Source: an uncultured Gammaproteobacteria bacterium (GTDB lineage Bacteria; Patescibacteriota; Microgenomatia; Levybacterales; GWA1-39-11). From it: 64,000 nt of DNA. Positions within the stretch are counted from its first letter, which is position 1, and each line of letters opens with the position of its first letter. The DNA is taken from assembly GCA_964485575.1 (NCBI GenBank), contig CAZAJO010000005.1:1389-65388 (forward strand). Reading direction: 5' to 3'. The notes beneath the pieces were generated by a model that was given only the letters and a program-made list of their open reading frames with translations, made no database searches and was not told the DNA's origin. Position numbers and translations under genes: made by a program. This document shows positions 16,886 to 37,846 of this stretch, piece after piece.

Positions 16886-17386
16886 TTAGATGATGGGACA
16901 CATCGCAAAAGCGTGGACGTGGACTAGGGCAGAGTCAAAATGGATAGTCTCAACTCCAGTTACTGTCCCACTTTCTTCAAATTTGTCAGTAACTTTATAC
17001 GCATATTGCCATTTGTCATCCGGCTCAGGGGTGCAGTCCTCAAAAAGTCTAGTTCTTTCCCCCAATTCACCAAGTTTTTCAACGAGATAGTCACTCACAG
17101 CATTTTCATTAAGGCCGAAACCTTCAAGAACTTGAATGTCTGGAGCTCCACCGGCATAGACTCGAGTGTATTTTTGGTCACCAACAACTAGAACTTCTTG
17201 CCCTGCCCCTGTTCTTTTTCCCGTGACCCACTCATCGTGATACTCTCCACCCTCTATTTTCACATGACTCGCCTTCCCATCAACTATCCCTCCCCTTTTC
17301 ATAGCATGGATATGACCATCTCCAGCGTACCCGCCAAGAAGACCTTGCGTTAATCCATTTGCAATTAATTTCTCTGTATCCTTCAT
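16886..17386 (-). CDS. Hypothetical protein
   Basis: 166-aa ORF with slightly higher GC than its neighbours and no recognisable motif. Confidence 0.4.
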   Translation of the reverse strand: MKDTEKLIANGLTQGLLGGYAGDGHIHAMKRGGIVDGKASHVKIEGGEYHDEWVTGKRTGAGQEVLVVGDQKYTRVYAGGAPDIQVLEGFGLNENAVSDYLVEKLGELGERTRLFEDCTPEPDDKWQYAYKVTDKFEESGTVTGVETIHFDSALVHVHAFAMCPII

Positions 17387-17505
17387 AAAGGTATTTTAGT
17401 ACTAAAGAATCTCGAAATCCACATTTCCTAAATAAATTTATCTTATAGTTTGATTTGAACCTAGATTGTTGTTATAATTCCGTCAGTCTAGCTCAGGAGT
17501 AGAAC

Positions 17506-17859
17506 TTGTCAGGAAAGATTTACGTGGGTACCAGAGATGGTGCCTGGGTTGTAGGAGTGACGGTCGATGGCCAGAAACTCTTCAACTACGACAAGCACGG
17601 CGACCCCGACAACGGGTTCGAATGGGGATACGGAGGAGGCGGGCCTTTCGCCCTGTCCCTCTCCATCCTCTCCGATCACTACGACGTTGAACAAGGTGCA
17701 GACCCATTTGCGCACGACAGCCATCTGTACATCAAGGCGCAGCAGTTCAAGGAAGAAGTGATCTCCCAGCTCCCGCACAACGCGGGGTTCACTCTCACGA
17801 GTGAGCAGGTAGCCGAATGGATCGCGGACAAAGAGCCCGCTAGCAGGACTCGAACGTAA
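17506..17859 (+). CDS. Hypothetical protein encoded in a high-GC foreign segment (TTG start preceded by AGGAG)
   Basis: 117 codons with strong GC3 bias (aac tac gac aag cac ggc gac ccc...) in an otherwise AT-rich genome. AGGAG sits 7 nt upstream of the TTG start. The gene ends 4 nt before a 13-bp GNRA-capped hairpin. Confidence 0.55.
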   Translation: MSGKIYVGTRDGAWVVGVTVDGQKLFNYDKHGDPDNGFEWGYGGGGPFALSLSILSDHYDVEQGADPFAHDSHLYIKAQQFKEEVISQLPHNAGFTLTSEQVAEWIADKEPASRTRT

Positions 17860-17990
17860 CGACCCTACGGTGACATCCGCCCTTCGGAGCCGCAAGGCTT
17901 CGAAGGGCACCACCCAAAAATCCAGAAATTTTAGAAAAACCCAAATCCTCTGGCAAAAGCCCACTCCCGAAAAACCGTAAGTGCGAGCAG

Positions 17991-18596
17991 GTGTATACTC
18001 AATTTGTGAGAAATATTGAGGAAAATATCATCATGCATCTTAAGGCGTTTTTCTTTCCTCTTCTTTTTAAATTTGTCAAAACAGAAAATTTCTTGGAATA
18101 CCACATAGGTAATTTTTTTGATCGACCGAAAAAGAGAAAAAACACAGAAACCGATGAGCAGTATCTTGGAAGACTTACGCCTAGTCAAGCCGTTAGAATT
18201 TCTCAATACAATTACAATAAATGGTATTACAATAATGCTTCGTATCATGTCGTTCCACCTGATTTGAGCAATTGGGAAGAAGAAAGCAGAAAGACTCTTG
18301 AAAAGCTATTGGATGCACTATTTCTTATTGAGGAGCAATGGAAAGATCTTTATAGAAAATCACTTGATAGAAAAATTGTTGAACTAAAAAAGCCCAAAAA
18401 GAATAAAGGTCTTGAAATCAAAAGCACAATCCTGACTTTTTTACTTGGATGGGTGTTTATATTTATTGGAGGAATAATAATCATGTTTGTTGTGATGGGA
18501 TTTAACCACCTACTTCTTGCCCTTCACATCCCCATCATAAAAGAAGTACCAATTTTTGGTACAAAAATGGAAATCCCTCCCCCACCTAAAAGATAA
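17991..18596 (+). CDS. Hypothetical membrane-anchored protein
   Basis: 201 aa with a C-terminal TM helix and a Pro-rich tail. Confidence 0.4.
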   Translation: MYTQFVRNIEENIIMHLKAFFFPLLFKFVKTENFLEYHIGNFFDRPKKRKNTETDEQYLGRLTPSQAVRISQYNYNKWYYNNASYHVVPPDLSNWEEESRKTLEKLLDALFLIEEQWKDLYRKSLDRKIVELKKPKKNKGLEIKSTILTFLLGWVFIFIGGIIIMFVVMGFNHLLLALHIPIIKEVPIFGTKMEIPPPPKR

Positions 18597-18637: not shown

Positions 18638-19096
18638 TTAGCAGGAAATTTCGAGGGCTTGCACTCCATTAAATTCCTCATAACCCTCAGTGAGCCTTTT
18701 ATTATTTGCTTCTTTAACAAAGTTAAGTAAAATTCCAGTACCCCAAACTTCTTCATTTTCTCTAACTTGTTTCCTCAACTCTTGTATATATCTTTTTACC
18801 TGAACTGGAAATTCCTCCTTGATACCTGGCTCCGCCTTTAACTCTACGATAACAGCAGTTTTACGTCCATCATTTTTAAGCCAAACTACAAGATCTGGCC
18901 TAACGTCCCCAATGATATGTCCACTGTACGTTATTGGTAATGGCCTTTCGGTCTCATACATAATTCCTTTATCTCGAAGGGCTGTTTCCATGGCGTTGTG
19001 ATAAATCCCTTCAAGCCACCCCGGACCAAGCTCGGTCATGATTGACGAAGCGCACTCTTTTAAAGTAGCTATTAATTGTCCAACTTGCTCTTCCAT
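18638..19096 (-). CDS. GxxExxY protein (PD-(D/E)XK nuclease superfamily)
   Basis: Contains GWLEGIY, which fits the family-defining GxxExxY signature, at the usual N-terminal position; 152 aa. Confidence 0.7.
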   Translation of the reverse strand: MEEQVGQLIATLKECASSIMTELGPGWLEGIYHNAMETALRDKGIMYETERPLPITYSGHIIGDVRPDLVVWLKNDGRKTAVIVELKAEPGIKEEFPVQVKRYIQELRKQVRENEEVWGTGILLNFVKEANNKRLTEGYEEFNGVQALEISC

Positions 19097-19133
19097 AATT
19101 ATATTGTAACTCTATAACATCTTCTCCTCAATA

Positions 19134-20060
19134 TTATTTATCAGGGGCTGCATCATATGATTCCTTAACAATTGGAAAAACATAATTCAAATCTTTAGGG
19201 TTACTTATCTCAACCCACCACAAAGGAGTTTTACCCCAAGCATATGATGCTGGGATTTTTGTAAATCTTTTTTCCTTGTCATTTATTACTTCTTTTCTAA
19301 CAGTGATTCTAAGCTTTTCTTTAAAAAAATGGATAGCAACAAAGTTGTACCAGCTTACTTTGTAGCCGATGTAATTTCCTACCGGCTTTTCCTGAATTTT
19401 ACTATCTAAACCAAAAATTTGTTCACGCAGTTCCTGGAATAAGTCCTGAATATTTTTAGATGACTTTTTTAAATGGTCCTCAACAGTATAGGTTACGATT
19501 TCCTTTGCTGCAGTTCCTGTAAGACTACTCGATGATTTTTTCTCAAGCTTTTTATCACCACCTATTGGATTTATTTGGTCGTACTCAATAAGTCCTCCCT
19601 CGTATATGCCCACTTCCCACAACTCGAAAGGCAAATTAGGTGAGAGTGCTCTTTTTTGATAGGTACTAAATTTGGGACCGATGAACATTACTCGTGTCTG
19701 TCCCCAGTCGACATTTTTCTTGTCTATTGTCTTCCCAGTTTTTGTAATATATTCAAGCAAAACATCGGCCTTATGATCCAATACTAAATTAAGATAAGTC
19801 TGTCCTTGGTCCATCAACGAGAAATTTTCAACCTTCTTGTATTCGATAATTACAAAAGAATTGATAGCGGTATCAAAAGCAAGAGAATCGAGCCAAAAGG
19901 ACTCTATATTAAATTCTGTTGCTATAAATTCTAGACCGAAAAGTTCTTGTAAATTGTACTCAGTAAAATTCTGAAGTTCTTTTTCTTTTTTGAAATGAGA
20001 ATCAAACCCAACTTCTCGGACAGGTGTTAACTTTTTCCCATTTATTTTAAATAAAGCCAT
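19134..20060 (-). CDS. PD-(D/E)XK restriction-endonuclease-fold protein with C-terminal DUF4268-like domain
   Basis: N-terminal D...IIEYKK matches the D-(D/E)xK core motif; 308 aa. The family assignment of the C-terminal half is from memory. Confidence 0.5.
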   Translation of the reverse strand: MALFKINGKKLTPVREVGFDSHFKKEKELQNFTEYNLQELFGLEFIATEFNIESFWLDSLAFDTAINSFVIIEYKKVENFSLMDQGQTYLNLVLDHKADVLLEYITKTGKTIDKKNVDWGQTRVMFIGPKFSTYQKRALSPNLPFELWEVGIYEGGLIEYDQINPIGGDKKLEKKSSSSLTGTAAKEIVTYTVEDHLKKSSKNIQDLFQELREQIFGLDSKIQEKPVGNYIGYKVSWYNFVAIHFFKEKLRITVRKEVINDKEKRFTKIPASYAWGKTPLWWVEISNPKDLNYVFPIVKESYDAAPDK

Positions 20061-20369
20061 TTGAGGTGAATTATATTTGAGTGTAAGCTCAAATACAAGC
20101 TATATGCTTATACGCTCAGTTCAAAACAAAAGCAATTGAGGCCAAACTATAAGTCAAATAAAATATCACTAAACTCAATAGCCTAGGGTATATATGCTTA
20201 TAGGATATTAGCTAGATAGAAGAATACAAAGCCATTTGATCTTCGTTGGCTTTTTTTACAATTTCTTTCAACATTTTCTTTTTCTCGTCGGCCTTTGACA
20301 AGACAAAAAATCTAGAAAAATCTGTAGTAGGAATAAACGATTTTTTCTTTAAAAAGCTAAATACCATAG

Positions 20370-21065
20370 TTAATCTAACAATTTTTCGAGTTCAATTGTA
20401 GTATACATCCTCTTGATATAATAATCAACCTTATCCTTATTAAGTTCTAGGGCATCGAGATTTTGTTGAAAATTTTTTACTACAATGTTAAGTTTAATCT
20501 TATTTCCATAGAGTTTCTTTGCATTATTAACATTATCTATTGATTTAATATAGGCCTTTATAAAAACTTTTTTAGGAACGTTTCTGAACTCTTTCAATTC
20601 CCTTTTCTTTGTATAAGCCCAAGAAAGTAATGGATCCTGATATAGAAAATAAATTTCTACGTTCCTATTATGCTTGAGGGAATGATCAATATTCCCCAAT
20701 GCATCATTATATGCAAAAGTTCCATCAAGGATTATATTCAATCCCATTTTACATGCATAGTCATAAAGAATATTTACTCCTTTAGTTGCCGCCTTTTGGA
20801 AAATATATGCTTTTTTTCCTTTATAACCACTTACGAATTTTCTTATTTCATCAGCGTCAATAATTACAGGCTTTTCCTTAAATGATTCAGCAAGTCTTCG
20901 AGAAAACTCAGTTTTTCCTGCTCCTGGTGAGCCGGCCATGAAAATTGTAGTAGGATAACTATCTGTTGGGGTATTCTCTGGAACAAATTTTTTAATTAGA
21001 TCTTTTCTGTGATCTTTTATCCACAAGTGGGCATCTTCACTTTCTTTTAATTCGTGTTCTTCCAT
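20370..21065 (-). CDS. Zeta-toxin family P-loop kinase (PezT/zeta-like)
   Basis: Walker A MAGSPGAGKT near the N-terminus, at zeta-toxin-like length (231 aa) and with similar downstream motif spacing. Confidence 0.6.
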   Translation of the reverse strand: MEEHELKESEDAHLWIKDHRKDLIKKFVPENTPTDSYPTTIFMAGSPGAGKTEFSRRLAESFKEKPVIIDADEIRKFVSGYKGKKAYIFQKAATKGVNILYDYACKMGLNIILDGTFAYNDALGNIDHSLKHNRNVEIYFLYQDPLLSWAYTKKRELKEFRNVPKKVFIKAYIKSIDNVNNAKKLYGNKIKLNIVVKNFQQNLDALELNKDKVDYYIKRMYTTIELEKLLD

Positions 21066-21131
21066 AGCTTCATTTTACAAAGATAGTTAGCAAATTGCTA
21101 TTTAACATAAATTCTATTACGTCGTTAATAC

Positions 21132-22106
21132 TTAACTTACTACATCAATAAAATGTATTTGTTTATTTTTTCCCCAGTCCATAATTTTTACATACCTACC
21201 ATTGTGTTTTGTTGGGTGATTTAATTTACAACCCTCACATTCATATTTTTCAACTTTATCTGGGGTTTCCCAAAAAAGAGTTTTTTCACCTATTGTAACC
21301 TTTGTTTCGTGATGACAGCTCATGGGTATGACATATTTAAGGCCGTCCATCTGAAATATATTCCAGCTTATAATTTCAGCAAATTCTTCCAGCACATAAA
21401 GAGGTGGTCGTCTATTAAATTTAGCTTTATAGTGATCAATGAGTGTATAAAGTAGATTTTCGCGAGCAATTAAAATATTGTCACCTTGCCATTCGTAACC
21501 ATAGGAACTCTGATATGCAACTTTTGCCCACTTAATCCATTCTTTTGGCTTTTTACAGTATTTAGAAACGTAATGAAGCTTCTTGTCGAGAAAACCAACC
21601 CGGTTCTCAATCTTTATAACTGCTCCATGAGCAATTGGATTGTACCGACTTACTATAAAAGGCGCCTCACCACAAGCAATTTCAAGTTTTATTTCAGCAA
21701 CATAACTTTGCCAATTGGTTTCAGTTACTGAATTCTCATCAACCAATTTATTCATTTGGTCAATAATATGAAGTGGAGTGAACACTTCTCCCTTTTCTCT
21801 TGTACGAAAGCGCTGCTCTTCGCGGCTTTTAACAGCACGAGGCTGAATCAGCTTGCCATTAAGTCCAGTCACCAATTCAGGTTTTATCTGATTTTTTTTT
21901 GAAAACTCTTTACCGTATTTTTCGTAAGAATCAGTTGCCCAGATAATGTTCTTTTTTGTGGTCCTATCAATAAGAAGAATATCTAGAAGCTTGCCTTTCC
22001 GTCGAAGCGTGTTTTCAAGGATGTCAGCATTTTTTTCCGGTGCCATGTTATTCCACGGCTTTGACATGTGTTTCGATGAATTGAATTTCTTTCTCATCAA
22101 GTCCAT
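21132..22106 (-). CDS. Methyltransferase-like protein (gamma-class N6-MTase motifs X and I only, no NPPY) with C-terminal Cys/His Zn-ribbon-like cluster
   Basis: Contains GEVFTPLHIIDQM (motif X) and LEIACGEAPFIV (motif I), then a C-terminal CHH...CEGC cluster. It lacks (D/N)PP(Y/F/W). The true start is probably the ATG at 22046 (MAPEK), 1 nt after the stop of the upstream giant gene. Confidence 0.5.
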   Translation of the reverse strand: MDLMRKKFNSSKHMSKPWNNMAPEKNADILENTLRRKGKLLDILLIDRTTKKNIIWATDSYEKYGKEFSKKNQIKPELVTGLNGKLIQPRAVKSREEQRFRTREKGEVFTPLHIIDQMNKLVDENSVTETNWQSYVAEIKLEIACGEAPFIVSRYNPIAHGAVIKIENRVGFLDKKLHYVSKYCKKPKEWIKWAKVAYQSSYGYEWQGDNILIARENLLYTLIDHYKAKFNRRPPLYVLEEFAEIISWNIFQMDGLKYVIPMSCHHETKVTIGEKTLFWETPDKVEKYECEGCKLNHPTKHNGRYVKIMDWGKNKQIHFIDVVS

Positions 22107-25100
22107 ACTTTTTATAAAGCTGTCTGTCTATATCTGCGATGGATTTGGTCCAATCGATATCTGAATCAGATGTAAAGTCTTGGATAGGTATATATATCCA
22201 TTTTGATGGTGGGTTATCTTGCGTAATCTTTAGCACACCTAACAAGCACCTTAATAATTTTGTTTTGATATATTTTGCAGCATTAATTGCCTCAATTTCT
22301 TTATCAAAAGCCCCAATACTTATGAATGTCGGTGTAGCTGAATCTGATGGTCCACCAACTACCGGTTTACTCAAAATTTCACCAAAGGAACCACTACCGT
22401 TTGCCTTGGGAATAAAAATCTTCCATTTGCCTAGATTATTTTTTTGAGGATAGCGCGGAACCATAAATTTTTTCTCTATCCATCGCCATACTCTTTCTCC
22501 CCGATATAAGCCTAAAATTCTATAGTAATCACTTGAGTTGCTAGGATTTTGCTTCTTGAAAACATCAGTTAAGGATTCAAAAGTTGATGACTTCAATTCG
22601 TATTCTTCATTTGGTCCAAGCTCTGTGACCTCCGGGTGCTTTGCTTGAATATTCAAAAGTCGATCTTTTTTGGAATTTGGATATTCTTTTAGAAATTCTT
22701 CGTTAAATTTCAGGTCTGATCTTCCCCCAAGCATGATTGATGAAAGATTATTTTCACTGCCAGGATTGACCTTTGAAATTATTATTCTTAAATTTGCGTC
22801 TGGAATAAATTTCTTGATAGCACCAAAATTCTTGTTTTCGTCATAATAAATAATAGCTACTCCTCCTTTTATATCAGTGTTCGGAAACACTTCTTTTGAA
22901 TTTGGGTTGTAATACTGAACTTTTAAATGAGCATTATTCAGCATCTTTAAATTCCATAGCTCAGGCGTTAATCCTGCATTAAAAAGGAAGCGAGCAGGAG
23001 AAATTATGCAGTATTTTTTACTAATTCTCTCCGCTAAATCATAAAAATATTGGTAAATAGGTTCTTGTCGATTGTATCCATCGGAAGATACCTGATATGG
23101 GGGGTTCCCAACAACAACGTCAAATTTCATATTTTTGTCTTCATTAAATTTAACTAATAATTCTTCTTCTGTATTCGTTATTCCTTGCCTTAATTTCTTT
23201 ACTAGATCTTCTATATATACAACATTCATCCTCGCACCACCATATCCAGCTAGCGTACGACGGGTTATCATTTGAGCCATTGGACTTTTACAGAGCACGA
23301 AAATATTGTCTGATAGAACTTTATTCCAAAGTTGTCTAGATATTTTGTCCTCAGGATTTTTGGCCTTTCTTAACTGCCTTGAATATATGTTATAGGTCGC
23401 AAGTAAGGGATAGAGCCCTGATTTTGAATTTATCTCAAGTATTTTAGTGTCGTCTTGTGACCAAATCTCTGTAGCCTCACCTTGAATTTTCCATTCTGGC
23501 TTTCCTGATTGATCAATAATTCCACCACGGAAGTCATGACCACCCAAAGTCATAACCATTTGCATATTTACAACATTCCATGGAGTGAGTACTGTCTCCT
23601 TATCTGGATTCTTGAAAGTTGCGAATATCTCAGCTATCGCCTGTATTCGTTCAGTTGGCAAAAGATCATCGCAGTCATAAGTTTTTGCTCGAATGCTGCG
23701 GGTAACACCACGAAATACTTCTTCATCATAATATTTAATGAAGCTTCGGAACAAATCTTTACTTAGTCCTGCCGGCATAAATTCTTTCCATGATTCTTCA
23801 TCAACAAGATCAATAAAATCTTGCAGGGTAATATCTTTATGAAGAGAAACATTAGCTCCATAGACCATCATTGGCATACGTATACTAACGGCTCGCAAGA
23901 TACTAATGGCACTCCTTTTTTGCTCTCGTGCTTCCTTGAGTTTTCTTAGCGCTTCTTTCTCTTCTTCTGATAGTTCTCTTTTTTGTTTCTTTCGTTCTTC
24001 TTCCTCGGCTTTTTGTATTTCAAGATCTGTCATTCCAAGACTATTAACCTCAATCTCGTTAATACGTTCATTTGTACTTGAACCAATAATGGCTTTCAAT
24101 TTATTAAAATTATTGATCGCTAATTCATCCAATTTAAGTAGCTCATCATTGTACAGTTTGGGGTCATCAAACCCATTGCGACTTACACGATCAATAATCG
24201 CCTTCTTAAGCTGATTAAGCATCGAGCCTACATCGTAAGGCTTCATAGATCCTCCTTCTGCTGCAAGAATAGGACAGAAATTAAGAAATTGGCTCATTGC
24301 GTCTTTTTGCTCAGGTGTATTTGTCTTGCCTGATTTATGATTTAGCTCTATAGCTTCGGCAATTAGCTTAAGAGTGCGGTCAGGAGCAAAATCGAACACA
24401 TACCCTTGGGTCTTAAGCTTTCCGTCAATTTTTGCTGGTGTTTGACATCGAAATGCAGTCTGTAAGTAAGCAGTAGCAGAGCTTGTATCTGACATCATAA
24501 AGACTGCTGTCCATTCCGGAATCGATGCACCTGTGGTCAGACGCTGACCCGTAAGTGTAATTGTGTACTCATTGGCCTTTATAGCATTTGTCACTCGCTC
24601 TTTTGCATCCTTATCTTCCTCGTCAACATGATTATTTCCTGAAATGTTTACTATTCCGAACTGACCAAAAATTGGGTGTTCTTTGAGCAACTTCTCCATA
24701 GCTTCAATAACTTTAACTCGATTAGGCAATAGCCACAAAGAGTGCTTATTGTAGTTACGGTATTCTTCTGTTGCATATGGAAACTTTGTTTGGAGTGTAT
24801 TGTCCACTAGTAAATCCAAGAATTTATTAACCATCTCTTCATGAACAAACTCTGCAACATCATTACCTTCATCGTCTTTATGTACTCGAAAAAATTCATG
24901 GAATTTGAAAGCACCATCTAGTGCATCTTTAAATTCAGTACCAAGACTTCCGATGTGACTTGCATATTTATCAATATCATAAGTAAACATGCTAAGAGCC
25001 GGTAATTCAGCATAGGGATTTGGCTTACCAGGATGATGCACGTCCCAGAAGAACTTCTCTTCCTGCTCCATCACATAATCCCAAGTATAAATATCTCTTT

Positions 25101-26073
25101 CTTCGTGCTTATGTAAAATATTAAATGGTGTACCTGAAAGTTGAAGAGTGAAGTTTCTTGGAATTTTTTCAAAAGTAGCTTCTCCTAGGATGCTTTGAGT
25201 ACCTTCATGAGCCTCATCTACGATAAGCATATCCCAAGTTGCATCGAAGACTTCATCGTTTTTATCAAATCCTCGCGCACCTGAATGAGCTGCTTCATCT
25301 ACAACAACTCTTTTGGAAAGACGTAAATCTTGTAATGAAGCAAAATAAATAAAAGGCTTATCACCTTTAACAAGTGTGCTAATATTTTCACCCTTAGTTC
25401 TGGATGAATATTCGTAATTTGTGCCTTCAAATACTTTATTAAAGTCGTCATACCAGTCTACACTTACGCTCGGACGATGCGTAACGATGAGCACCTTTTT
25501 CATCTCATTATCTTTGGCTACCTGCATAGCAGCTGATGTTTTACCAAAGCGCATTTTGGCATTCCAGAGAAAATGTTTACGATTTTGCTTGATTGCCTTG
25601 GTGGTTTTTTCTATAGCATCAAGTTGATTAGGTCTGAAGACAAATTCTCCATGCTTTTCATTTATTCTTTCTTCGGTATTAAGAGAAATCCGGCCTTCTC
25701 TAGCAGCGTTTATTGCATTTTTTGCTACATCAAGACTGATTTCAAACCATTCAGAATGATAATTTTTTGTATTTTCTGATTTTCGCTGGAAACCTGAACG
25801 CATCAATATTCGATGCACGGGTTTATCAACATCTTCAGGCTTATTGCCTGGAGTGGTTAAGATTTCAGCCAATAGTAATTTGTATGCCACGTCAGCTGTC
25901 TTTGTCTGTTGCTCGATGCGTTTTCTTGCAGCTTTTTCTATGGCTTCTTTTGAATTTATTGTTGTCGTTGCAGCACCAATCTTGAGCCGTCCCTTGTGAC
26001 TTCCGTCCCCAATGGTATAAACGTAAATGACTCCGTAGGAGAAAGTCTCATGAATTACATGTTGATTATCCAT
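22048..26073 (-). CDS. T5orf172 (GIY-YIG-like) - SF2 helicase - N6-adenine DNA methyltransferase - C-terminal target-recognition-like fusion protein; Type ISP-like single-chain restriction-modification candidate
   Basis: The N-terminus has YVYTIGD...GRLKIGAATT...HSEWFEI, a T5orf172/MUG113 signature. The helicase part has motif I RFGKTSAA, motif II LIVDEAH and motif III LSGTP. The MTase part has motif X VLTPWNVVNMQMV, motif I ILEINSKSGLY and motif IV VVVGNPPYQ. A roughly 340-aa C-terminal region would act as the target recognition domain. Confidence 0.7.
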   Translation of the reverse strand: MDNQHVIHETFSYGVIYVYTIGDGSHKGRLKIGAATTTINSKEAIEKAARKRIEQQTKTADVAYKLLLAEILTTPGNKPEDVDKPVHRILMRSGFQRKSENTKNYHSEWFEISLDVAKNAINAAREGRISLNTEERINEKHGEFVFRPNQLDAIEKTTKAIKQNRKHFLWNAKMRFGKTSAAMQVAKDNEMKKVLIVTHRPSVSVDWYDDFNKVFEGTNYEYSSRTKGENISTLVKGDKPFIYFASLQDLRLSKRVVVDEAAHSGARGFDKNDEVFDATWDMLIVDEAHEGTQSILGEATFEKIPRNFTLQLSGTPFNILHKHEERDIYTWDYVMEQEEKFFWDVHHPGKPNPYAELPALSMFTYDIDKYASHIGSLGTEFKDALDGAFKFHEFFRVHKDDEGNDVAEFVHEEMVNKFLDLLVDNTLQTKFPYATEEYRNYNKHSLWLLPNRVKVIEAMEKLLKEHPIFGQFGIVNISGNNHVDEEDKDAKERVTNAIKANEYTITLTGQRLTTGASIPEWTAVFMMSDTSSATAYLQTAFRCQTPAKIDGKLKTQGYVFDFAPDRTLKLIAEAIELNHKSGKTNTPEQKDAMSQFLNFCPILAAEGGSMKPYDVGSMLNQLKKAIIDRVSRNGFDDPKLYNDELLKLDELAINNFNKLKAIIGSSTNERINEIEVNSLGMTDLEIQKAEEEERKKQKRELSEEEKEALRKLKEAREQKRSAISILRAVSIRMPMMVYGANVSLHKDITLQDFIDLVDEESWKEFMPAGLSKDLFRSFIKYYDEEVFRGVTRSIRAKTYDCDDLLPTERIQAIAEIFATFKNPDKETVLTPWNVVNMQMVMTLGGHDFRGGIIDQSGKPEWKIQGEATEIWSQDDTKILEINSKSGLYPLLATYNIYSRQLRKAKNPEDKISRQLWNKVLSDNIFVLCKSPMAQMITRRTLAGYGGARMNVVYIEDLVKKLRQGITNTEEELLVKFNEDKNMKFDVVVGNPPYQVSSDGYNRQEPIYQYFYDLAERISKKYCIISPARFLFNAGLTPELWNLKMLNNAHLKVQYYNPNSKEVFPNTDIKGGVAIIYYDENKNFGAIKKFIPDANLRIIISKVNPGSENNLSSIMLGGRSDLKFNEEFLKEYPNSKKDRLLNIQAKHPEVTELGPNEEYELKSSTFESLTDVFKKQNPSNSSDYYRILGLYRGERVWRWIEKKFMVPRYPQKNNLGKWKIFIPKANGSGSFGEILSKPVVGGPSDSATPTFISIGAFDKEIEAINAAKYIKTKLLRCLLGVLKITQDNPPSKWIYIPIQDFTSDSDIDWTKSIADIDRQLYKKYGLDEKEIQFIETHVKAVE

Positions 26074-26092
26074 AAAATAACTTCTTGAGGGT

Positions 26093-26098
26093 ATTCTA
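26093..26098 (-). promoter_or_regulatory. Extended -10 element (TGgTAGAAT) upstream of the giant RM-like gene
   Basis: On the minus strand, TGGTAGAAT lies 20 nt upstream of the ATG at 26073, with an A-tract further upstream. The same TGGTA(C/G)AAT architecture recurs at 26722-26730 and 27412-27420. Confidence 0.4.
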
Positions 26099-26179
26099 CC
26101 ACTCTTGAGGCTGAAATGCTATTTTTTGAGGATTCTCGATTCTTCTATAATTATAACTCTATTAACAAATGCTGCACTT

Positions 26180-26434
26180 CTATGTGTGACATAAAAATCC
26201 CAAAGACCACCAATAACAATGACCAGAAAAAATATCAACAAACCACTTAACTATATATATCCAATAATTAATGGTCCAAAGAACAATGGATAGTACCACA
26301 ATTATCCCTATGATGTTTCTTCCAAGATTCTGCATTTTTTGGGAAGATTTTATTTCGGTACTTTTTTCTAATTCATCTTTAATTACTTTGGGTAAATCTG
26401 GATAAGTCATAAAAGTTTTTATATGAGAATTCAA
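26180..26434 (-). CDS. Small hypothetical membrane protein
   Basis: 84 aa with one TM helix; coding status uncertain. Confidence 0.3.
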   Translation of the reverse strand: MNSHIKTFMTYPDLPKVIKDELEKSTEIKSSQKMQNLGRNIIGIIVVLSIVLWTINYWIYIVKWFVDIFSGHCYWWSLGFLCHT

Positions 26435-26670
26435 ATATCATTTTTTTGTTCAAACATTTTTAAGAGCAGGGGTTCTGAAATGGCTACCGTTACTGCTCCT
26501 CCAAAAAAACTCCCTGTAATTTCCTTAATGATTAATCCGATAATTAAGGCTACTATAGTAGCAATTATTATGCCAAATTTTTTATACTTCTGTTTTGATG
26601 TTGATTGGGAATCGTTTTTTCTCCTTCTTTTTCGAAGCAGATAAAAAATGAAAGTAACAGGAAGAAGCAT
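26431..26670 (-). CDS. Small hypothetical membrane protein
   Basis: 79 aa with a basic N-terminus and one TM helix. Confidence 0.3.
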   Translation of the reverse strand: MLLPVTFIFYLLRKRRRKNDSQSTSKQKYKKFGIIIATIVALIIGLIIKEITGSFFGGAVTVAISEPLLLKMFEQKNDI

Positions 26671-26796
26671 AATAATTAGAAAGAAAATCGAAGTAAAAAT
26701 ATCAAATAAAAATTTTATGTCTATACCAAAATTGTACCACTAGACAAGTGCGAAGCAAGGAGAGGTTTTCTGAGGCTGGATTGCTAATAATTTTAC

Positions 26797-27411
26797 CTAA
26801 TCGACTTTGAGGTATTTGTCATCCGAAAGGCCTGCGCTTCGGCGGAGCTCGTATAGTCTTCCAAATTGAAAAAGGATTTCATTCTTTTTCTGATGGTAAC
26901 TTGCTATAGCATCTGATAACACCTCGGGGTTATTTTGCCAAATAGACGAATCTGTCACAATATCCATATCTTGTTGTTGAAGATAAAAAAGACGAGAAAT
27001 ATCTTGATACCCATCTATTACCTGCCTGTATTCCAATTCTCTTTTAGTGTCGGTAGGAGCCTGCGTGCTATTTGCCGAAGTTGCAGATCCGGCTATTACT
27101 CCAAAAAGAAATATTCCAAAAATTGCAGAAGCGCCCCAAATTACTCTAGGAATTGCTGACAATATGCGTATGGGATATTTTTTTAATCCCAGTACTCGAA
27201 TTCCAATTGAAGTGTGAGAGAACCATCTATATATTGCCTTACGCTTAAAAAATATTACTGTACCTCCAACAAAATAAAGAAAGAGAAAGAAGTTGGAAGG
27301 ATTCTGGTATATAAATACATAAAAAAGAAGAACAGAAAGACCCAAAATTGAATAAGCTAGTAACCGTATCCTGTCGTGAAAGTAACTCTTTTTTCTGCCT
27401 GCCATACTCAA
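26797..27411 (-). CDS. Hypothetical polytopic membrane protein
   Basis: 204 aa with 3-4 TM helices. The likely ATG start at 27405 is 6 nt after a TGGTACAAT -10 element, so the mRNA may be leaderless. Confidence 0.4.
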   Translation of the reverse strand: MSMAGRKKSYFHDRIRLLAYSILGLSVLLFYVFIYQNPSNFFLFLYFVGGTVIFFKRKAIYRWFSHTSIGIRVLGLKKYPIRILSAIPRVIWGASAIFGIFLFGVIAGSATSANSTQAPTDTKRELEYRQVIDGYQDISRLFYLQQQDMDIVTDSSIWQNNPEVLSDAIASYHQKKNEILFQFGRLYELRRSAGLSDDKYLKVD

Positions 27412-27534
27412 ATTGTACCACCTGACACTAGCATAACAAGGAGAATTTTTTTGAGGGTGGGATGGTTTTGTTGTTAAATTTTTTAAATAAGACTAAACTT
27501 ATTATGTGCTTATTCACGGGAAGGGGGTGAATAT

Positions 27535-36622: not shown

Positions 36623-37750
36623 TTATACACCACTCTTTCCAGTTGAGATCTTTTCCCAAGGAAAACCTGTGCGACCGAAGTGACCATAGGCAGCAGTTGA
36701 GCTGTAAATCGGTCGTGCCAACTTTAACGTTTCGATAATAGACCTGACTGACGTATCAATGAGCTTATCCTTAAAATCAAATAGCGCCTTCTCACTCACA
36801 GTAGATGTACCGAAGGTCTCAATTGTCTGCATTAGAGGTCTTGGCTGCCCTATGACATATGCAAGACCAACTTCACATTTTGTAGCAAGACCAGATGCTA
36901 CAATATTTTTTGCGATATAACGGGCAGCATATGCTCCTGATCTGTCGACTTTACTAGGATCTTTTCCAGAGAAAGCGCCACCACCAACCCGCGCGTATCC
37001 TCCATATGTGTCAACGACAATCTTTCTACCCGTAAGTCCAGCATCTGACTCCGGACCTGGGATATGCCACAATCCTGTACCGTTAATAGTTATGTCTGAG
37101 TCTTTCGGAAGCTCTAGTTTGTATTTTCTAAGAACGGGTCTGAAGACATTTTTGATGATCTCATCCCTAACTTGATCAGCTTCCGTCTTTTCATCATGGG
37201 CAACTGCTGCAACGAGTTTTTCTATCCCAATCGGGATACCTTTTTCGTATTTGACTGTCACTTGAGCTTTCCCATCTGGGCGTAGCCATTTCAATATTTT
37301 CTTCTCCCTCACCTCATCTATGCGCTCAACTAAAGCATGTGCCATTCTTATGGGTAAGGGCATCAACTCAGGTGTTTCATTACAGGCATACCCAAACATC
37401 ATGCCTTGATCTCCTGCTCCATCAAGGTCAACACCCATTGCAATTTCTGGAGATTGAGCGTGTATACTGTTGGTGAAAGAAGATTTCTGGCTGAATCCCC
37501 ATGCGGGAACAGTATACCCAAGTTCCTTTACTTTATTTCTGGCTATTTTTTCAAAATTGATTTTTGACTTAGTTCTTATCTCACCAAAAAGACAAATTTG
37601 ATTTGCACCGGCAACAGTCTCTATGCCACATCTGGAATTTGGGTCAGAGGCAAGAGCTGCATCCACAATTGCGTCACTTATCTGATCGCAAATCTTGTCG
37701 GGATGTCCTGCACAAACTGATTCTGAAGTAAAAAGGTAATTCTTTGACAT
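36623..37750 (-). CDS. metK: S-adenosylmethionine synthetase MetK
   Basis: GHPDKICDQISDAIVDA signature. The true start is probably the ATG at 37750 (MSKNYLFTSESV), not the upstream TTG at 37768. Confidence 0.9.
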   Translation of the reverse strand: MSKNYLFTSESVCAGHPDKICDQISDAIVDAALASDPNSRCGIETVAGANQICLFGEIRTKSKINFEKIARNKVKELGYTVPAWGFSQKSSFTNSIHAQSPEIAMGVDLDGAGDQGMMFGYACNETPELMPLPIRMAHALVERIDEVREKKILKWLRPDGKAQVTVKYEKGIPIGIEKLVAAVAHDEKTEADQVRDEIIKNVFRPVLRKYKLELPKDSDITINGTGLWHIPGPESDAGLTGRKIVVDTYGGYARVGGGAFSGKDPSKVDRSGAYAARYIAKNIVASGLATKCEVGLAYVIGQPRPLMQTIETFGTSTVSEKALFDFKDKLIDTSVRSIIETLKLARPIYSSTAAYGHFGRTGFPWEKISTGKSGV

Positions 37751-37757
37751 AATTTTT

Positions 37758-37846
37758 TCCTTGGGCAAGGACGCATCGCTTTGGCAAGCTTGGCACCGAT
37801 AAATTTACGGTTGCCGTTCGTAGCTATACGAAACTCTTGATGCAGA
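37758..37846 (-). promoter_or_regulatory. Candidate SAM-I-family (S-box-like) riboswitch with SD-sequestering hairpin in the metK leader
   Basis: The minus-strand leader reads UCUGCAUCAAGAG...CGGCAACC...GGUGCCAA...AAAGCGAUGCG. It shares the exact octamers AUCAAGAG, CGGCAACC and GGUGCCAA, in the same order, with the canonical yitJ/metF S-box, as I recall it. P1 pairs GCAUC with GAUGC, and UCCUU/AAGGA pairing sequesters the SD. Confidence 0.4.

Follow-up and report, generated by a model that had tools for sequence, protein, structure and literature searches.

[quoted passage not shown] In the Type IIG enzymes of the Eco57I/MmeI kind, the restriction endonuclease and the methyltransferase (MTase) share one chain, the cut is made at a fixed distance and there is no ATPase motor. 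Toxins of the zeta/PezT family act by phosphorylating UDP-GlcNAc and are neutralised by a partner. A further arrangement is the DnmA(YeeA)-YeeB-YeeC cluster, in which an MmeI-like N6-adenine MTase, an SF2 helicase and a T5orf172 nuclease are encoded in one conserved cluster (PMC9973331). No restriction or phage defence was seen for this cluster in Bacillus subtilis, so that such loci can be relics or epigenetic, while the Vibrio crassostreae homologues of DnmA and YeeB are reported to have an effect on phage sensitivity (PMC9973331).

The locus described here is an island of minus-strand open reading frames (ORFs), of which five, g1 to g5, were annotated from the ORF list of a 64-kb window, meaning the whole stretch of DNA that was analysed. 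Their coordinates bear out the original prediction of five co-directional genes with short gaps, the intergenic distances from g1 to g5 being 37, 309, 66 and 1 nt in order. The last of these presumes that g4 starts at the conserved Met21, whose ATG at 22046 lies one base past the TAA of g5. The end of the island had been placed at 26180 and has to be moved, as g5 starts at 26073 and positions 26074-26179 are intergenic DNA upstream of it. The supposed spacer of 309 nt has the length claimed for it but is not empty; it holds a conserved 51-aa ORF that starts 2 nt past the g3 stop, and the island therefore consists of six genes:

18638-19096, minus strand: g1, 152 aa, GxxExxY / PDDEXK_3 protein in an exchangeable slot
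19134-20060, minus strand: g2, 308 aa, PADLOC candidate PDC-S18, PD-(D/E)XK-like in its N-half, C-half matching DUF5655
20212-20367, minus strand: 51-aa ORF, conserved partner of g3, putative antitoxin or regulator
20370-21065, minus strand: g3, 231 aa, zeta-toxin-family P-loop kinase
21132-22046, minus strand: g4, 304 aa (the longest ORF, to 22106, gives 324 aa), predicted half-MTase and partner of g5
22048-26073, minus strand: g5, 1341 aa, putative restriction-motor-methylase core

The most probable description of this locus is a composite defence island, lying in a strain-variable chromosomal stretch by the dcw cluster and made up of four independent modules: the g5+g4 RM enzyme, g3 with the 51-aa ORF, g2, and g1. 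The only functional links predicted from the sequences are between g4 and g5 and, separately, between g3 and the 51-aa ORF. The data themselves show the gene content, the synteny statistics, the domains and folds assigned, the reshuffling of modules and the swapping of alleles between strains.

The co-directional, tightly spaced genes occur in the same order in at least 10 metagenome contigs, as might be expected if g1 to g5, or all six genes, formed one integrated defence system, with the zeta kinase and both accessory nucleases coupled to the restriction enzyme as effectors of abortive infection. However, the contigs that share this order come from sibling strains that are 88-95% identical, so the order reflects common ancestry and not independent linkage. 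Beyond that species, in g5-anchored genome loci searched to a distance of 10 kb from the g5 homologue, g3 and g1 homologues were each found in 0/72 and g2 homologues in 4/72; near g2 homologues in g2-anchored metagenome loci, g3 was found in 0/80, g1 in 3/80 and g4/g5 in 3/80. Genes of the g3 family sit in four unrelated neighbourhoods, where the neighbours include CBASS, MutH/Dcm/SNF2 and NmeDI/MazG genes. Exchange is visible even among the siblings: the g1 slot of contigs L078, L079 and L082 holds a 251-254-aa PDDEXK_1 gene instead (in L079 the gene is cut by the contig end and has no Pfam call), and strains with the same island carry g5 alleles of down to 78% identity alongside a g3 that is 100% identical. 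In favour of integration, g2 homologues directly adjoin g4-g5 pairs in four independent genomes (L011, L015, L030 and L032), and g2 lies next to g4/g5 homologues in three more contigs from metagenomes, of which one does not extend far enough to show g5; in the g2-anchored loci L139 and L141 these homologues are at distances from g2 of 1.9 kb and under 100 nt. From these genomes and contigs, PDC-S18 (g2) may have a loose functional affinity to RM enzymes, but the g2 homologues near g5 are 31-37% identical where the accompanying g4 and g5 are 62-67% identical, which implies separate acquisitions. We regard a single integrated system as extremely unlikely. The original prediction had offered both possibilities, together with a comparison of gene neighbourhoods as the means of checking them. 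The multi-component version, with kinase and accessory nucleases backing the restriction enzyme, does not survive that comparison, since in none of the 72 genomes did a g3 or g1 homologue come within 10 kb of a g5 homologue. The composite island is upheld, as three of the modules match RM or defence-candidate models or occupy defence neighbourhoods elsewhere. The five-gene 'system' thus dissolves, and tight co-directional packing inside one species is no evidence of a functional unit.

That the island lies in an accessory stretch beside the dcw cluster was confirmed: MraZ, RsmH, a PBP and Mur ligases are found to its left at 7.8-13.9 kb, and the DNA between these genes and the island varies among sibling strains. 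The region has a GC content of 38% and many of its genes are without a family assignment, from which a bacterium of the Patescibacteria type is the probable host. There are no tRNA genes in the window, and around the island no flanking direct repeats except for a 57-nt promoter-like duplication. Scans for promoters and terminators gave no more than background level, and a megablast of the whole island against plasmids gave no match. A GC-rich patch at 17.4-18.0 kb is a DUF6166 gene, for which an Rfam search found nothing. Between g3 and g2 the spacer has a 12-nt repeat, TATAAGCATATA, that exceeds chance only marginally, with 7/100 shuffles reaching the same level. Small membrane-protein ORFs upstream (26180-26670) and a 204-aa ORF were considered as members of the system and rejected, as their homologues lie near no g5 relative.

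The zeta-toxin-like kinase of the original prediction was readily recovered in g3, which matches Pfam Zeta_toxin (PF06414) at 115.5 bits against a cut-off of 22.3 (E=2.8e-33), has a weak match to PezT (2p5t, E=2.7e-4), and contains the Walker A motif 'GSPGAGKT', 'IIDADEIR' and an intact 'IDxD' region. The family is largely confined to Patescibacteria, which account for most of the 1231 homologues. Directly after every g3-family gene examined there is a homologous ORF of 51-63 aa with the invariant pattern 'DFS.FF...EKK...AN.DQ..L'; the 51-aa ORF belongs to no Pfam family and has no similarity to epsilon or PezA. No antitoxin gene of the epsilon/PezA type lies upstream of g3, where the neighbour is g4, 66 nt away. 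Since a homologous small ORF comes after the zeta-like kinase in every case examined, the two are a putative reverse-order toxin-antitoxin pair. By analogy with known zeta systems, g3 and the 51-aa ORF are most likely a reverse-order toxin-antitoxin or abortive-infection pair, or a stabiliser of the island, formed by the kinase and its conserved, translationally coupled small partner. As the partner lies downstream and does not resemble epsilon or PezA, the toxin-antitoxin reading is one by analogy. A reverse-order family, apparently typical of Patescibacteria, would thereby be added to the zeta-type toxin-antitoxin systems.

The g2 protein matches the PADLOC PDC-S18 model (PDLC04945) at E=2.6e-84, with residues 1-302 on profile positions 1-301 of 302. 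Its N-half carries a PD-(D/E)XK-type D...ExK...QG..Y pattern with conserved D58, D63, E73, K75, Q85-G86 and Y89, and its C-half matches DUF5655 (E=8.6e-11). It had been called a DUF4268 nuclease, which has to be rejected because DUF4268 gave no Pfam match even at E<=10 and DUF5655 was the only family found. Elsewhere its neighbours, as read from sequence alone, include a large type IIG-like protein (9/47 loci) and an HsdR-like protein (7/47), and HsdS-like proteins and MTases also occur among them. We found no paper naming PDC-S18. The protein is a stand-alone defence candidate, a predicted nuclease that is habitually located beside RM systems. The GxxExxY assignment of g1 stands, with matches to TIGR04256 (cut-off 35, score 65.9 bits) and PDDEXK_3 (PF13366, 77.6 bits, E=1e-21) and with the motifs 'GWLEGIY' and 'PDLVV...IVELK' (GxxExxY; D...ExK) on direct reading. 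It is a predicted PD-(D/E)XK protein whose slot is taken by a different nuclease in other strains.

The largest gene, g5, does encode a nuclease-helicase-MTase as first proposed, with the Pfam domains T5orf172 (residues 17-123), ResIII (144-317) and Eco57I (923-1063), and has 7588 homologous database proteins (E<=0.001) of 36-78% identity across phyla. The following parts can be distinguished:

25705-26025, minus strand: T5orf172 (GIY-YIG superfamily) putative nuclease, residues 17-123, PF10544 at 25.1 bits against a cut-off of 20
24169-25683, minus strand: SF2 helicase/translocase, approximately residues 131-635, Pfam ResIII / SWI2_SNF2 / DEAD
23143-23904, minus strand: N'-half, approximately residues 724-977, resembling an MTase N-half with altered SAM motifs
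22051-23142, minus strand: C-half, residues 978-1341, with beta4 'KFDVVVGNPPYQ', the remainder of the MTase fold and the target-recognition region
22200-23194, minus strand: hypervariable segment, putative target-recognition domain, codons ~960-1291 with a core at 1086-1266

The nuclease domain has a family-conserved 'VIYVY...LKIG...SEWFE', and the helicase motifs (Walker A 'FGKT', DEAH, 'SGTP' and 'QTAFRCQ') are near-invariant in 25 homologues, in which the catalytic-type motifs of nuclease, ATPase and NPPY are invariant. The NPPY lies at 23095-23106, residues 990-993. In N' the motifs 'ETVLTPW', 'EINSKSGLYPL' and 'CKSP' are altered but invariant, and judging from these residues SAM binding may still be possible. 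The hypervariable segment is the most variable stretch of the family alignment, in contrast to the conserved g4, and it is swapped between sibling strains, whose contigs are 88-95% identical on both sides and unalignable inside. An AF2 model of residues 700-1341 (pLDDT 80) has Foldseek matches to CamA, BrxX/PglX, LlaBIII and DrdV; in this model beta1-beta3 of N' are continuous with beta4-7, so that N' and C make one complete Rossmann domain in cis. No PDB chain matched g5 at the sequence level, and no Mrr or PD-(D/E)XK domain was found in it by Pfam.

The g4 protein had been described as a pseudo-MTase with a Zn-ribbon, which is close: it is MTase-like, has no NPPY and carries a Cys/His cluster (C-x-H...C-x2-C...H). 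The description can be refined to a predicted SAM-binding half-MTase that belongs with g5. It corresponds to the N-terminal half of a gamma-class N6-adenine MTase, a Rossmann N-half that retains motifs X, I, II and III for SAM binding and ends before motif IV. That motif, (N/D/S)PP(Y/F/W), is absent from g4, from 38 aligned homologues and from the Lactobacillales-type partners; beta5-7 and the target-recognition domain are also missing, and no column is invariant beyond the strand that precedes the catalytic loop. There are 6058 homologous database proteins (E<=0.001), and source annotations name g4 homologues 'restriction endonuclease subunit M'. When the profiles of g4 and g5 were compared with each other, no homology between N and N' was detected.

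In a tblastn survey g4 adjoins g5 in 53/60 informative loci, on its downstream side in the close clade and on its upstream side in the distant one. Of the other seven loci, six have a diverged partner of 224-255 aa with 'GEVFTP...LEPSAGEGAFL', and none of the five such partners scanned contains NPPY. The seventh locus, L024, a candidate for a natural g5 without the C-half, was rejected as a disrupted g5 copy. The near-universal synteny argues against g5 being sufficient alone, and the identities of g4 and g5 co-vary (r=0.97, n=50). The same modules are distributed differently elsewhere. Phage FNU4 gp28 is a g4-like N fused directly to a C-half homologous to that of g5, phage PTm1 encodes the N and C halves as separate genes (the stand-alone C-half being gp277), and in 47/80 viral loci the phage encodes only a g4-like N-half. 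Variant-B loci combine N and C, separate or as a fused N-C, with a nuclease-helicase-N' protein (R') of 1100-1150 aa. These R' proteins stand alone, end exactly at g5 residue 977, are 34-36% identical to g5 over the helicase region, and align with N' at their C-terminus (hhalign probability 89%, E=2e-6). The splitting and fusing of modules in these ways indicates one complex. Homologues of g4-g5 occur in Patescibacteria, Firmicutes, Bacteroidota, proteobacterial MAGs, conjugative plasmids and phages, and we found no paper describing the family or its architecture.

We conclude, from comparison of these sequences, that g4 and g5 are a predicted obligate pair forming one ATP-dependent RM enzyme of three modules. 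The R' module consists of a GIY-YIG-type nuclease, an SF2 translocase and the divergent N', which resembles an MTase N-half; C is the NPPY catalytic half with the target-recognition region, and N is g4 with its canonical SAM-binding motifs. Here R' and C are fused as g5, with N separate. The hypervariable C-terminal region would read an asymmetric DNA site, and the NPPY pocket would methylate adenine at N6 in host sites, with g4 required for this protective SAM-dependent reaction. Invading DNA lacking the methylation would trigger ATP-driven translocation and be cut by the N-terminal nuclease, much as in Type ISP. Every biochemical activity given here, and the division of labour among N, N' and C, is what we infer from these features.

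The contribution of g4 is the part of this scheme that can most readily be argued otherwise. Because the AF2 fold is complete in cis there is no obvious place for g4, and its role as supplier of SAM binding is uncertain. That complete fold, the PADLOC MTase_II match of g4 (E=4e-93) and the 'subunit M' names would suit a g5 that is a complete Type IIG/ISP enzyme in need of no partner, with g4 a second, self-sufficient MTase as M.Eco57I is beside Eco57I. We think this very unlikely: the parts missing from g4 are missing in all its homologues, phages fuse or pair the same N-half with a g5-type C-half to give a full enzyme, and g4 is unchanged when the specificity region of g5 is swapped, where an independent MTase would have to track specificity. 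It is somewhat less improbable, but still unlikely, that g4-g5 is inactive as a defence here and, as has been proposed for the B. subtilis cluster, is an RM locus of epigenetic or relic nature or else a selfish addiction module. The B. subtilis cluster has the same three domain types and gave neither restriction nor phage protection (PMC9973331), and many of the hosts are small-genome Patescibacteria. Against this, the Vibrio homologues do affect phage sensitivity (PMC9973331), and the invariant catalytic-type motifs, a specificity region that diversifies between sibling strains, the presence of the family in defence-type gene neighbourhoods as well as on conjugative plasmids, and phages that carry cognate orphan methylase forms are typical of active RM arms races. 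An extension of the three-module RM enzyme, which we put forward tentatively as a doubtful though real possibility, is that it represents a large uncharacterised ATP-dependent RM class in which the C-half pairs either with N' as part of the nuclease-helicase chain (restriction mode) or with free g4 (methylation mode), the choice gating self-protection against attack. As a corollary, phages with only the N-half would use their g4-like protein as a Ral-like anti-restriction factor, so that the host enzyme methylates the phage DNA. If a half-MTase does act in trans, it would be a new way to couple or gate methylation and restriction, and the phage gene family would be explained as counter-defence. 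Automatic RM annotation would also be corrected, because g4-type proteins would not be stand-alone methylases; in pipelines the pair appears as 'Type IIG enzyme + Type II methylase', and its anatomy fits neither.

Compared with known systems, g3 resembles epsilon/zeta and PezA/PezT in its strong Zeta_toxin match, weak PezT match and tightly coupled small partner gene, but differs in that this partner, 51-63 aa long, lies on the downstream side and shows no likeness to epsilon or PezA. The likeness of g2 to PDC-S18 is end to end, and its relatives lie beside RM genes. DnmA-YeeB-YeeC has the same three functions as g4-g5, a likeness by domain description, and its split layout is comparable to the variant-B loci with their MTase and nuclease-helicase protein; it differs in having three proteins and another domain order, with no half-MTase partner or N' described. 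With the Type IIG/IIL enzymes (Eco57I, MmeI, DrdV) g5 shares an NPPY gamma-MTase and target-recognition domain in chain with a nuclease, a Pfam Eco57I domain, a PADLOC REase_MTase_IIG match and a fold like that of MmeI and DrdV, and as in Eco57I with M.Eco57I a separate 'M' gene adjoins it. However, g5 carries an ATP-dependent helicase motor of ~500 aa and the 'M' gene, g4, is only half an enzyme. A Type IIG assignment was rejected since the SF2 motor is complete and the IIG model aligns only to residues 979-1338, the last 360. The Type ISP enzymes LlaGI and LlaBIII share with g5 an SF2 ATPase followed by a gamma-class N6-adenine MTase and a C-terminal target-recognition domain in one chain. 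In contrast to their Mrr-type PD-(D/E)XK nuclease, g5 has a T5orf172/GIY-YIG domain, a half-MTase gene is linked to it in essentially all informative loci, and the modules are also found as separate genes. With its enzyme functions predicted, g4-g5 is a new architectural variant of ATP-dependent RM.

The five genes of the candidate defence island are consecutive open reading frames (ORFs) on the minus strand, as the original prediction had them. The exception is the start of g5, which had been put at 26180 and lies at 26073.

18638-19096, minus strand: g1, ORF, GxxExxY protein
19134-20060, minus strand: g2, ORF, PDC-S18 protein
20212-20367, minus strand: 51-aa ORF in the 309-nt g3-g2 spacer, start 2 nt past the g3 stop
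20370-21065, minus strand: g3, ORF, zeta kinase
21132-22106, minus strand: g4, ORF, half-methyltransferase; the conserved Met21 (ATG at 22046) is an alternative start
22048-26073, minus strand: g5, ORF, giant nuclease-helicase-methyltransferase

The intergenic distances are 37 nt (g1-g2), 309 nt (g2-g3) and 66 nt (g3-g4), and a g4 start at Met21, one base past the g5 TAA, would leave 1 nt between g4 and g5. The length predicted for the g2-g3 spacer was correct, but the spacer is not empty, as it holds the 51-aa ORF. Between this ORF and g2 the 12-mer TATAAGCATATA occurs at 20101-20112 and 20191-20202 (minus strand), 90 nt apart and nowhere else in the window; the repeat barely exceeds chance (7 of 100 shuffles) and might serve g2 as an operator or promoter element.

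The left neighbour of the island is the dcw cluster, as predicted, with MraZ, RsmH, a PBP and Mur ligases. The DNA between this cluster and the island differs from one sibling strain to another, and a scan of it gave no family matches. A 117-aa DUF6166 ORF (17506-17859, plus strand) in the variable DNA to the left of the island looks like a recent foreign acquisition. The surrounding 17001-18000 has a GC content of 49%, against roughly 38% for the window, and there is a GC-rich hairpin at about 17875-17905, 3′ of the ORF. The window has no tRNA, and no pair of repeats flanks the island. Elsewhere, a 57-nt direct repeat (26723-26779 and 27404-27460, 75% identical) has copies ending in a Shine-Dalgarno-like CAAGGAGA, 5′ of 79-aa and 204-aa ORFs, and is probably a duplicated promoter/leader. 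A SAM-I/IV riboswitch (Rfam RF01725, 37743-37848, minus strand, 47.5 bits against a gathering score of 41.1) lies just 5′ of a 381-aa ORF at 36623-37768.

The genes had been proposed to form either a multi-component system or a composite island, and we compared these readings through linkage of homologues in other genomes. Around g5 homologues in 72 loci of different species (36-77% identity; Patescibacteria, proteobacterial MAGs, Lactobacillaceae, Clostridia, Bacteroidales, Bifidobacterium and others), homologues of g3 and of g1 were found within 10 kb in none of the 72 and of g2 in 4, and a g4 homologue was found in 53. Around g2 homologues in 80 metagenome loci there was no g3, with g1 in 3/80 and g4/g5 in 3/80; the commonest g2 neighbours, from cluster sequences inspected by eye, resemble a type IIG-like MTase-REase, HsdR, HsdS and a beta-class MTase. 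Three distant contigs have a g1 homologue 3′ of a g2 homologue, at 160 nt (L099, L100) or about 1.5 kb (L104). Four g3-family members on long contigs adjoin CBASS genes, a MutH/Dcm/SNF2 cluster, NmeDI/MazG genes or DUF4325 genes, and none of the four has g4/g5, g2 or g1 beside it. At least 22 metagenome contigs encode the exact g3 protein and share the gene order; their DNA is 88-95% identical to the window, so they represent sibling strains, whose common order is not independent evidence. Even among siblings, g1 is swapped for a 251-254-aa PDDEXK_1 gene directly after g2 (L078, 5671-6426; L082, 3041-3805); the same replacement is apparent at L079 (6363-6680), where the contig ends inside the gene and Pfam gives no assignment. 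In sibling contig L077 the g5 allele is 78% identical overall and g3 100% identical. The five genes are thus not linked as a set elsewhere and the island is composite: the linkage counts and the g1 swap contradict a system of all five genes and agree with a composite island. The original prediction is therefore partly supported, and, viewed as an island, the locus is ordinary. The pair of g3 and the 51-aa ORF, g2 and g1 most likely work independently.

Of these independent members, g1 scores above the curated thresholds of TIGR04256 (GxxExxY) and PDDEXK_3. The g2 protein matches the PADLOC candidate PDC-S18 from end to end (E=2.6e-84), and its C-terminal half matches Pfam DUF5655; the DUF4268 nuclease named in the original prediction gave no match in the Pfam search and is replaced by these assignments. 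The N-terminal half of g2 retains the D...D...ExK...QG..Y pattern typical of PD-(D/E)XK nucleases, and on this motif alone appears PD-(D/E)XK-like. The g3 protein is a P-loop kinase of the Zeta_toxin family (E=2.8e-33) and a remote relative of PezT, with 1231 homologues, mostly in Patescibacteria, in variable neighbourhoods rich in defence genes. An ORF of 51-63 aa lies at -4 to +5 nt after every g3-family gene examined, and the five small partner proteins align, with invariant ‘DFS.FF’, ‘EKK’ and ‘AN.DQ..L’ segments. The 51-aa protein matches no Pfam family, and no epsilon/PezA-like gene was found 5′ of g3. By analogy with epsilon/zeta and PezAT, we infer that g3 and the 51-aa ORF may form a reverse-order zeta-type toxin-antitoxin or abortive-infection pair.

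The synteny of g4 and g5 is obligate: all informative loci have the pair. The order is g5 then g4 in the close clade; in the distant clade (36-44% identity) g4 lies 5′ of g5, often behind an HTH gene, for example on Enterococcus faecium conjugative plasmids. One E. faecium plasmid (NZ_CP116515.1, 7705-15186; L073) carries, in this order, an HTH regulator, a g4-like gene, a 1412-aa Eco57I-domain protein, a DUF262 gene and a hypothetical gene. Database annotations of g4-type proteins disagree (‘restriction endonuclease’, as for this g4-like gene, ‘subunit M’ or ‘type II restriction enzyme’). BLAST found no g4 in seven g5 loci. Six of these, together with L041 and L049, where the g4 matches were only weak (26%), have a diverged 224-255-aa neighbour with ‘GEVFTP...FLEPSAGEGAFL...YGIE..EDN...GNALT’; the seventh, L024, has a disrupted g5 copy. 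Across homologues, g4 identity rises and falls with g5 identity (Pearson r=0.97, n=50), so the two are inherited as a unit.

No Pfam family matches g4, which matches the PADLOC ‘MTase_II’ model (E=4e-93). Its invariant residues are the SAM-binding motifs of gamma-class N6-adenine methyltransferases: motif X ‘EVFTP’, motif I ‘LEIACGEAPF’, motif II ‘YGYEWQGD’ and motif III ‘NIFQMDGL’. After these comes a Cys/His cluster, and g4 ends at the strand after which the NPPY catalytic loop usually comes; NPPY and a recognition domain are absent from all g4 homologues checked. Judged by its motifs, g4 is half a methyltransferase. The g5 protein combines T5orf172, which we take to belong to the GIY-YIG clan of Pfam, with a ResIII/SF2 helicase and an Eco57I-type methylase; the PADLOC Type IIG model matches only its last 360 residues. 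An AF2 model of residues 700-1341 (pLDDT 80) comprises a methyltransferase domain and a C-terminal DNA-recognition-like domain and resembles CamA, BrxX/PglX, LlaBIII and DrdV. In this model the catalytic NPPY half with its target-recognition region (C), which starts ‘MKFDVVVGNPPYQ’, shares a sheet with the domain before it, N′, which is like a methyltransferase N-half; the free N-half (N) is g4. N′ has unusual substitutions conserved in both clades, ‘ETVLTPW’, ‘EINSKSGLYPL’ and ‘CKSP’, with Lys in the usual place of the first G-loop glycine in the second and of the motif II ribose-binding acid in the third.

These modules are shuffled between lineages. In Fusobacterium phage FNU4 gp28 (546 aa), an N-half with 45% identity to g4 runs straight into a C-half with 36% identity to g5 residues 980-1338. 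In Tenacibaculum phage PTm1 the halves are separate genes with an HTH gene between them: gp277, which starts ‘MKFDIIVGNPPYQ’, aligns as a homologue of the g5 C-half at 982-1080 and 1212-1340, and the g4 homologue is gp279. Of 80 loci from a viral collection that have a g4-like gene, 25 also carry the helicase. N and C are adjacent genes in 5/80, two of these contigs ending inside the C-half gene, and are fused with no helicase detected in 3/80; they are also fused in helicase-bearing L201 and L204. In 47 of the 80 the N-half, of ~261 aa, had no g5-type C-half within 6 kb by tblastn; three of these N-only loci (L212, L209, L246) were also scanned for ORFs, and none of the ORFs contained NPPY. 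N-only loci make up most of L205-L252 (e.g. L212:5959-6741), many on contigs of 55-60 kb from one sample set (3300045988). The phage N-only protein could be an anti-restriction factor against g5-type enzymes or have its partner elsewhere in the genome.

In a further layout, variant B (L180, L188, L190-196, L200-204), N and C (or N-C) are followed by a 1100-1150-aa protein, R′, of T5orf172, helicase and N′, whose end falls exactly at g5 residue 977, the N′/C junction. Profile-profile alignment finds the R′ C-terminus collinear with g5 724-977 (probability 89%, E=2e-6), and g5 is thus a variant-B R′ fused to a C-half. Depending on the lineage, the N-terminus of C is joined either to N or to N′. 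This fusion/fission (‘Rosetta stone’) pattern is classical evidence that N (g4), N′ and C would act in one assembly.

Alleles of g5 are swapped between sibling strains, whose islands (L076-L085) are 88-95% identical except in g5 codons from about 960/1086 to 1266/1291. This variable block (22200-23194) is non-alignable between siblings, is the least conserved part of the family alignment, and in its pattern of divergence bears the signature of target-recognition-domain exchange, as in Type I, IIG and ISP enzymes. Because g4 keeps 90-95% DNA identity across g5 alleles, it is not the specificity determinant.

The C-terminal region of g5 would read an asymmetric site, and the NPPY pocket would methylate host DNA with g4 required; only g4 holds the canonical SAM-motif set. 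Unmethylated foreign DNA would license ATP-dependent translocation and GIY-YIG-type cleavage, as in Type ISP enzymes (PMC3553950). An attractive alternative is that g4 might instead be a second N-half whose use shifts the enzyme between methylation and restriction. This would fit the two N-type modules per C in every layout, but it is at odds with the AF2 model, which folds N′ and C together in cis.

We found no papers on a half-methyltransferase partner or N/N′/C shuffling in our incomplete literature collection. The finding is of moderate interest because g4-g5 is a new architecture with thousands of relatives, phage-borne forms included. The ATPase motor rules out a Type IIG assignment of g5, whatever its Eco57I domain and its labels in databases suggest. 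The closest multi-gene analogue, likened by domain description alone, is DnmA-YeeB-YeeC (MmeI-like methyltransferase, helicase and T5orf172 protein), which was inactive in B. subtilis and whose homologues altered phage sensitivity in Vibrio crassostreae (PMC9973331). Type ISP enzymes, which g5 may resemble in its working, have an Mrr-type nuclease and are self-sufficient, whereas the g5 nuclease is not Mrr-type and g5 is apparently not self-sufficient; g4-g5 is a new architectural variant of ATP-dependent restriction-modification.
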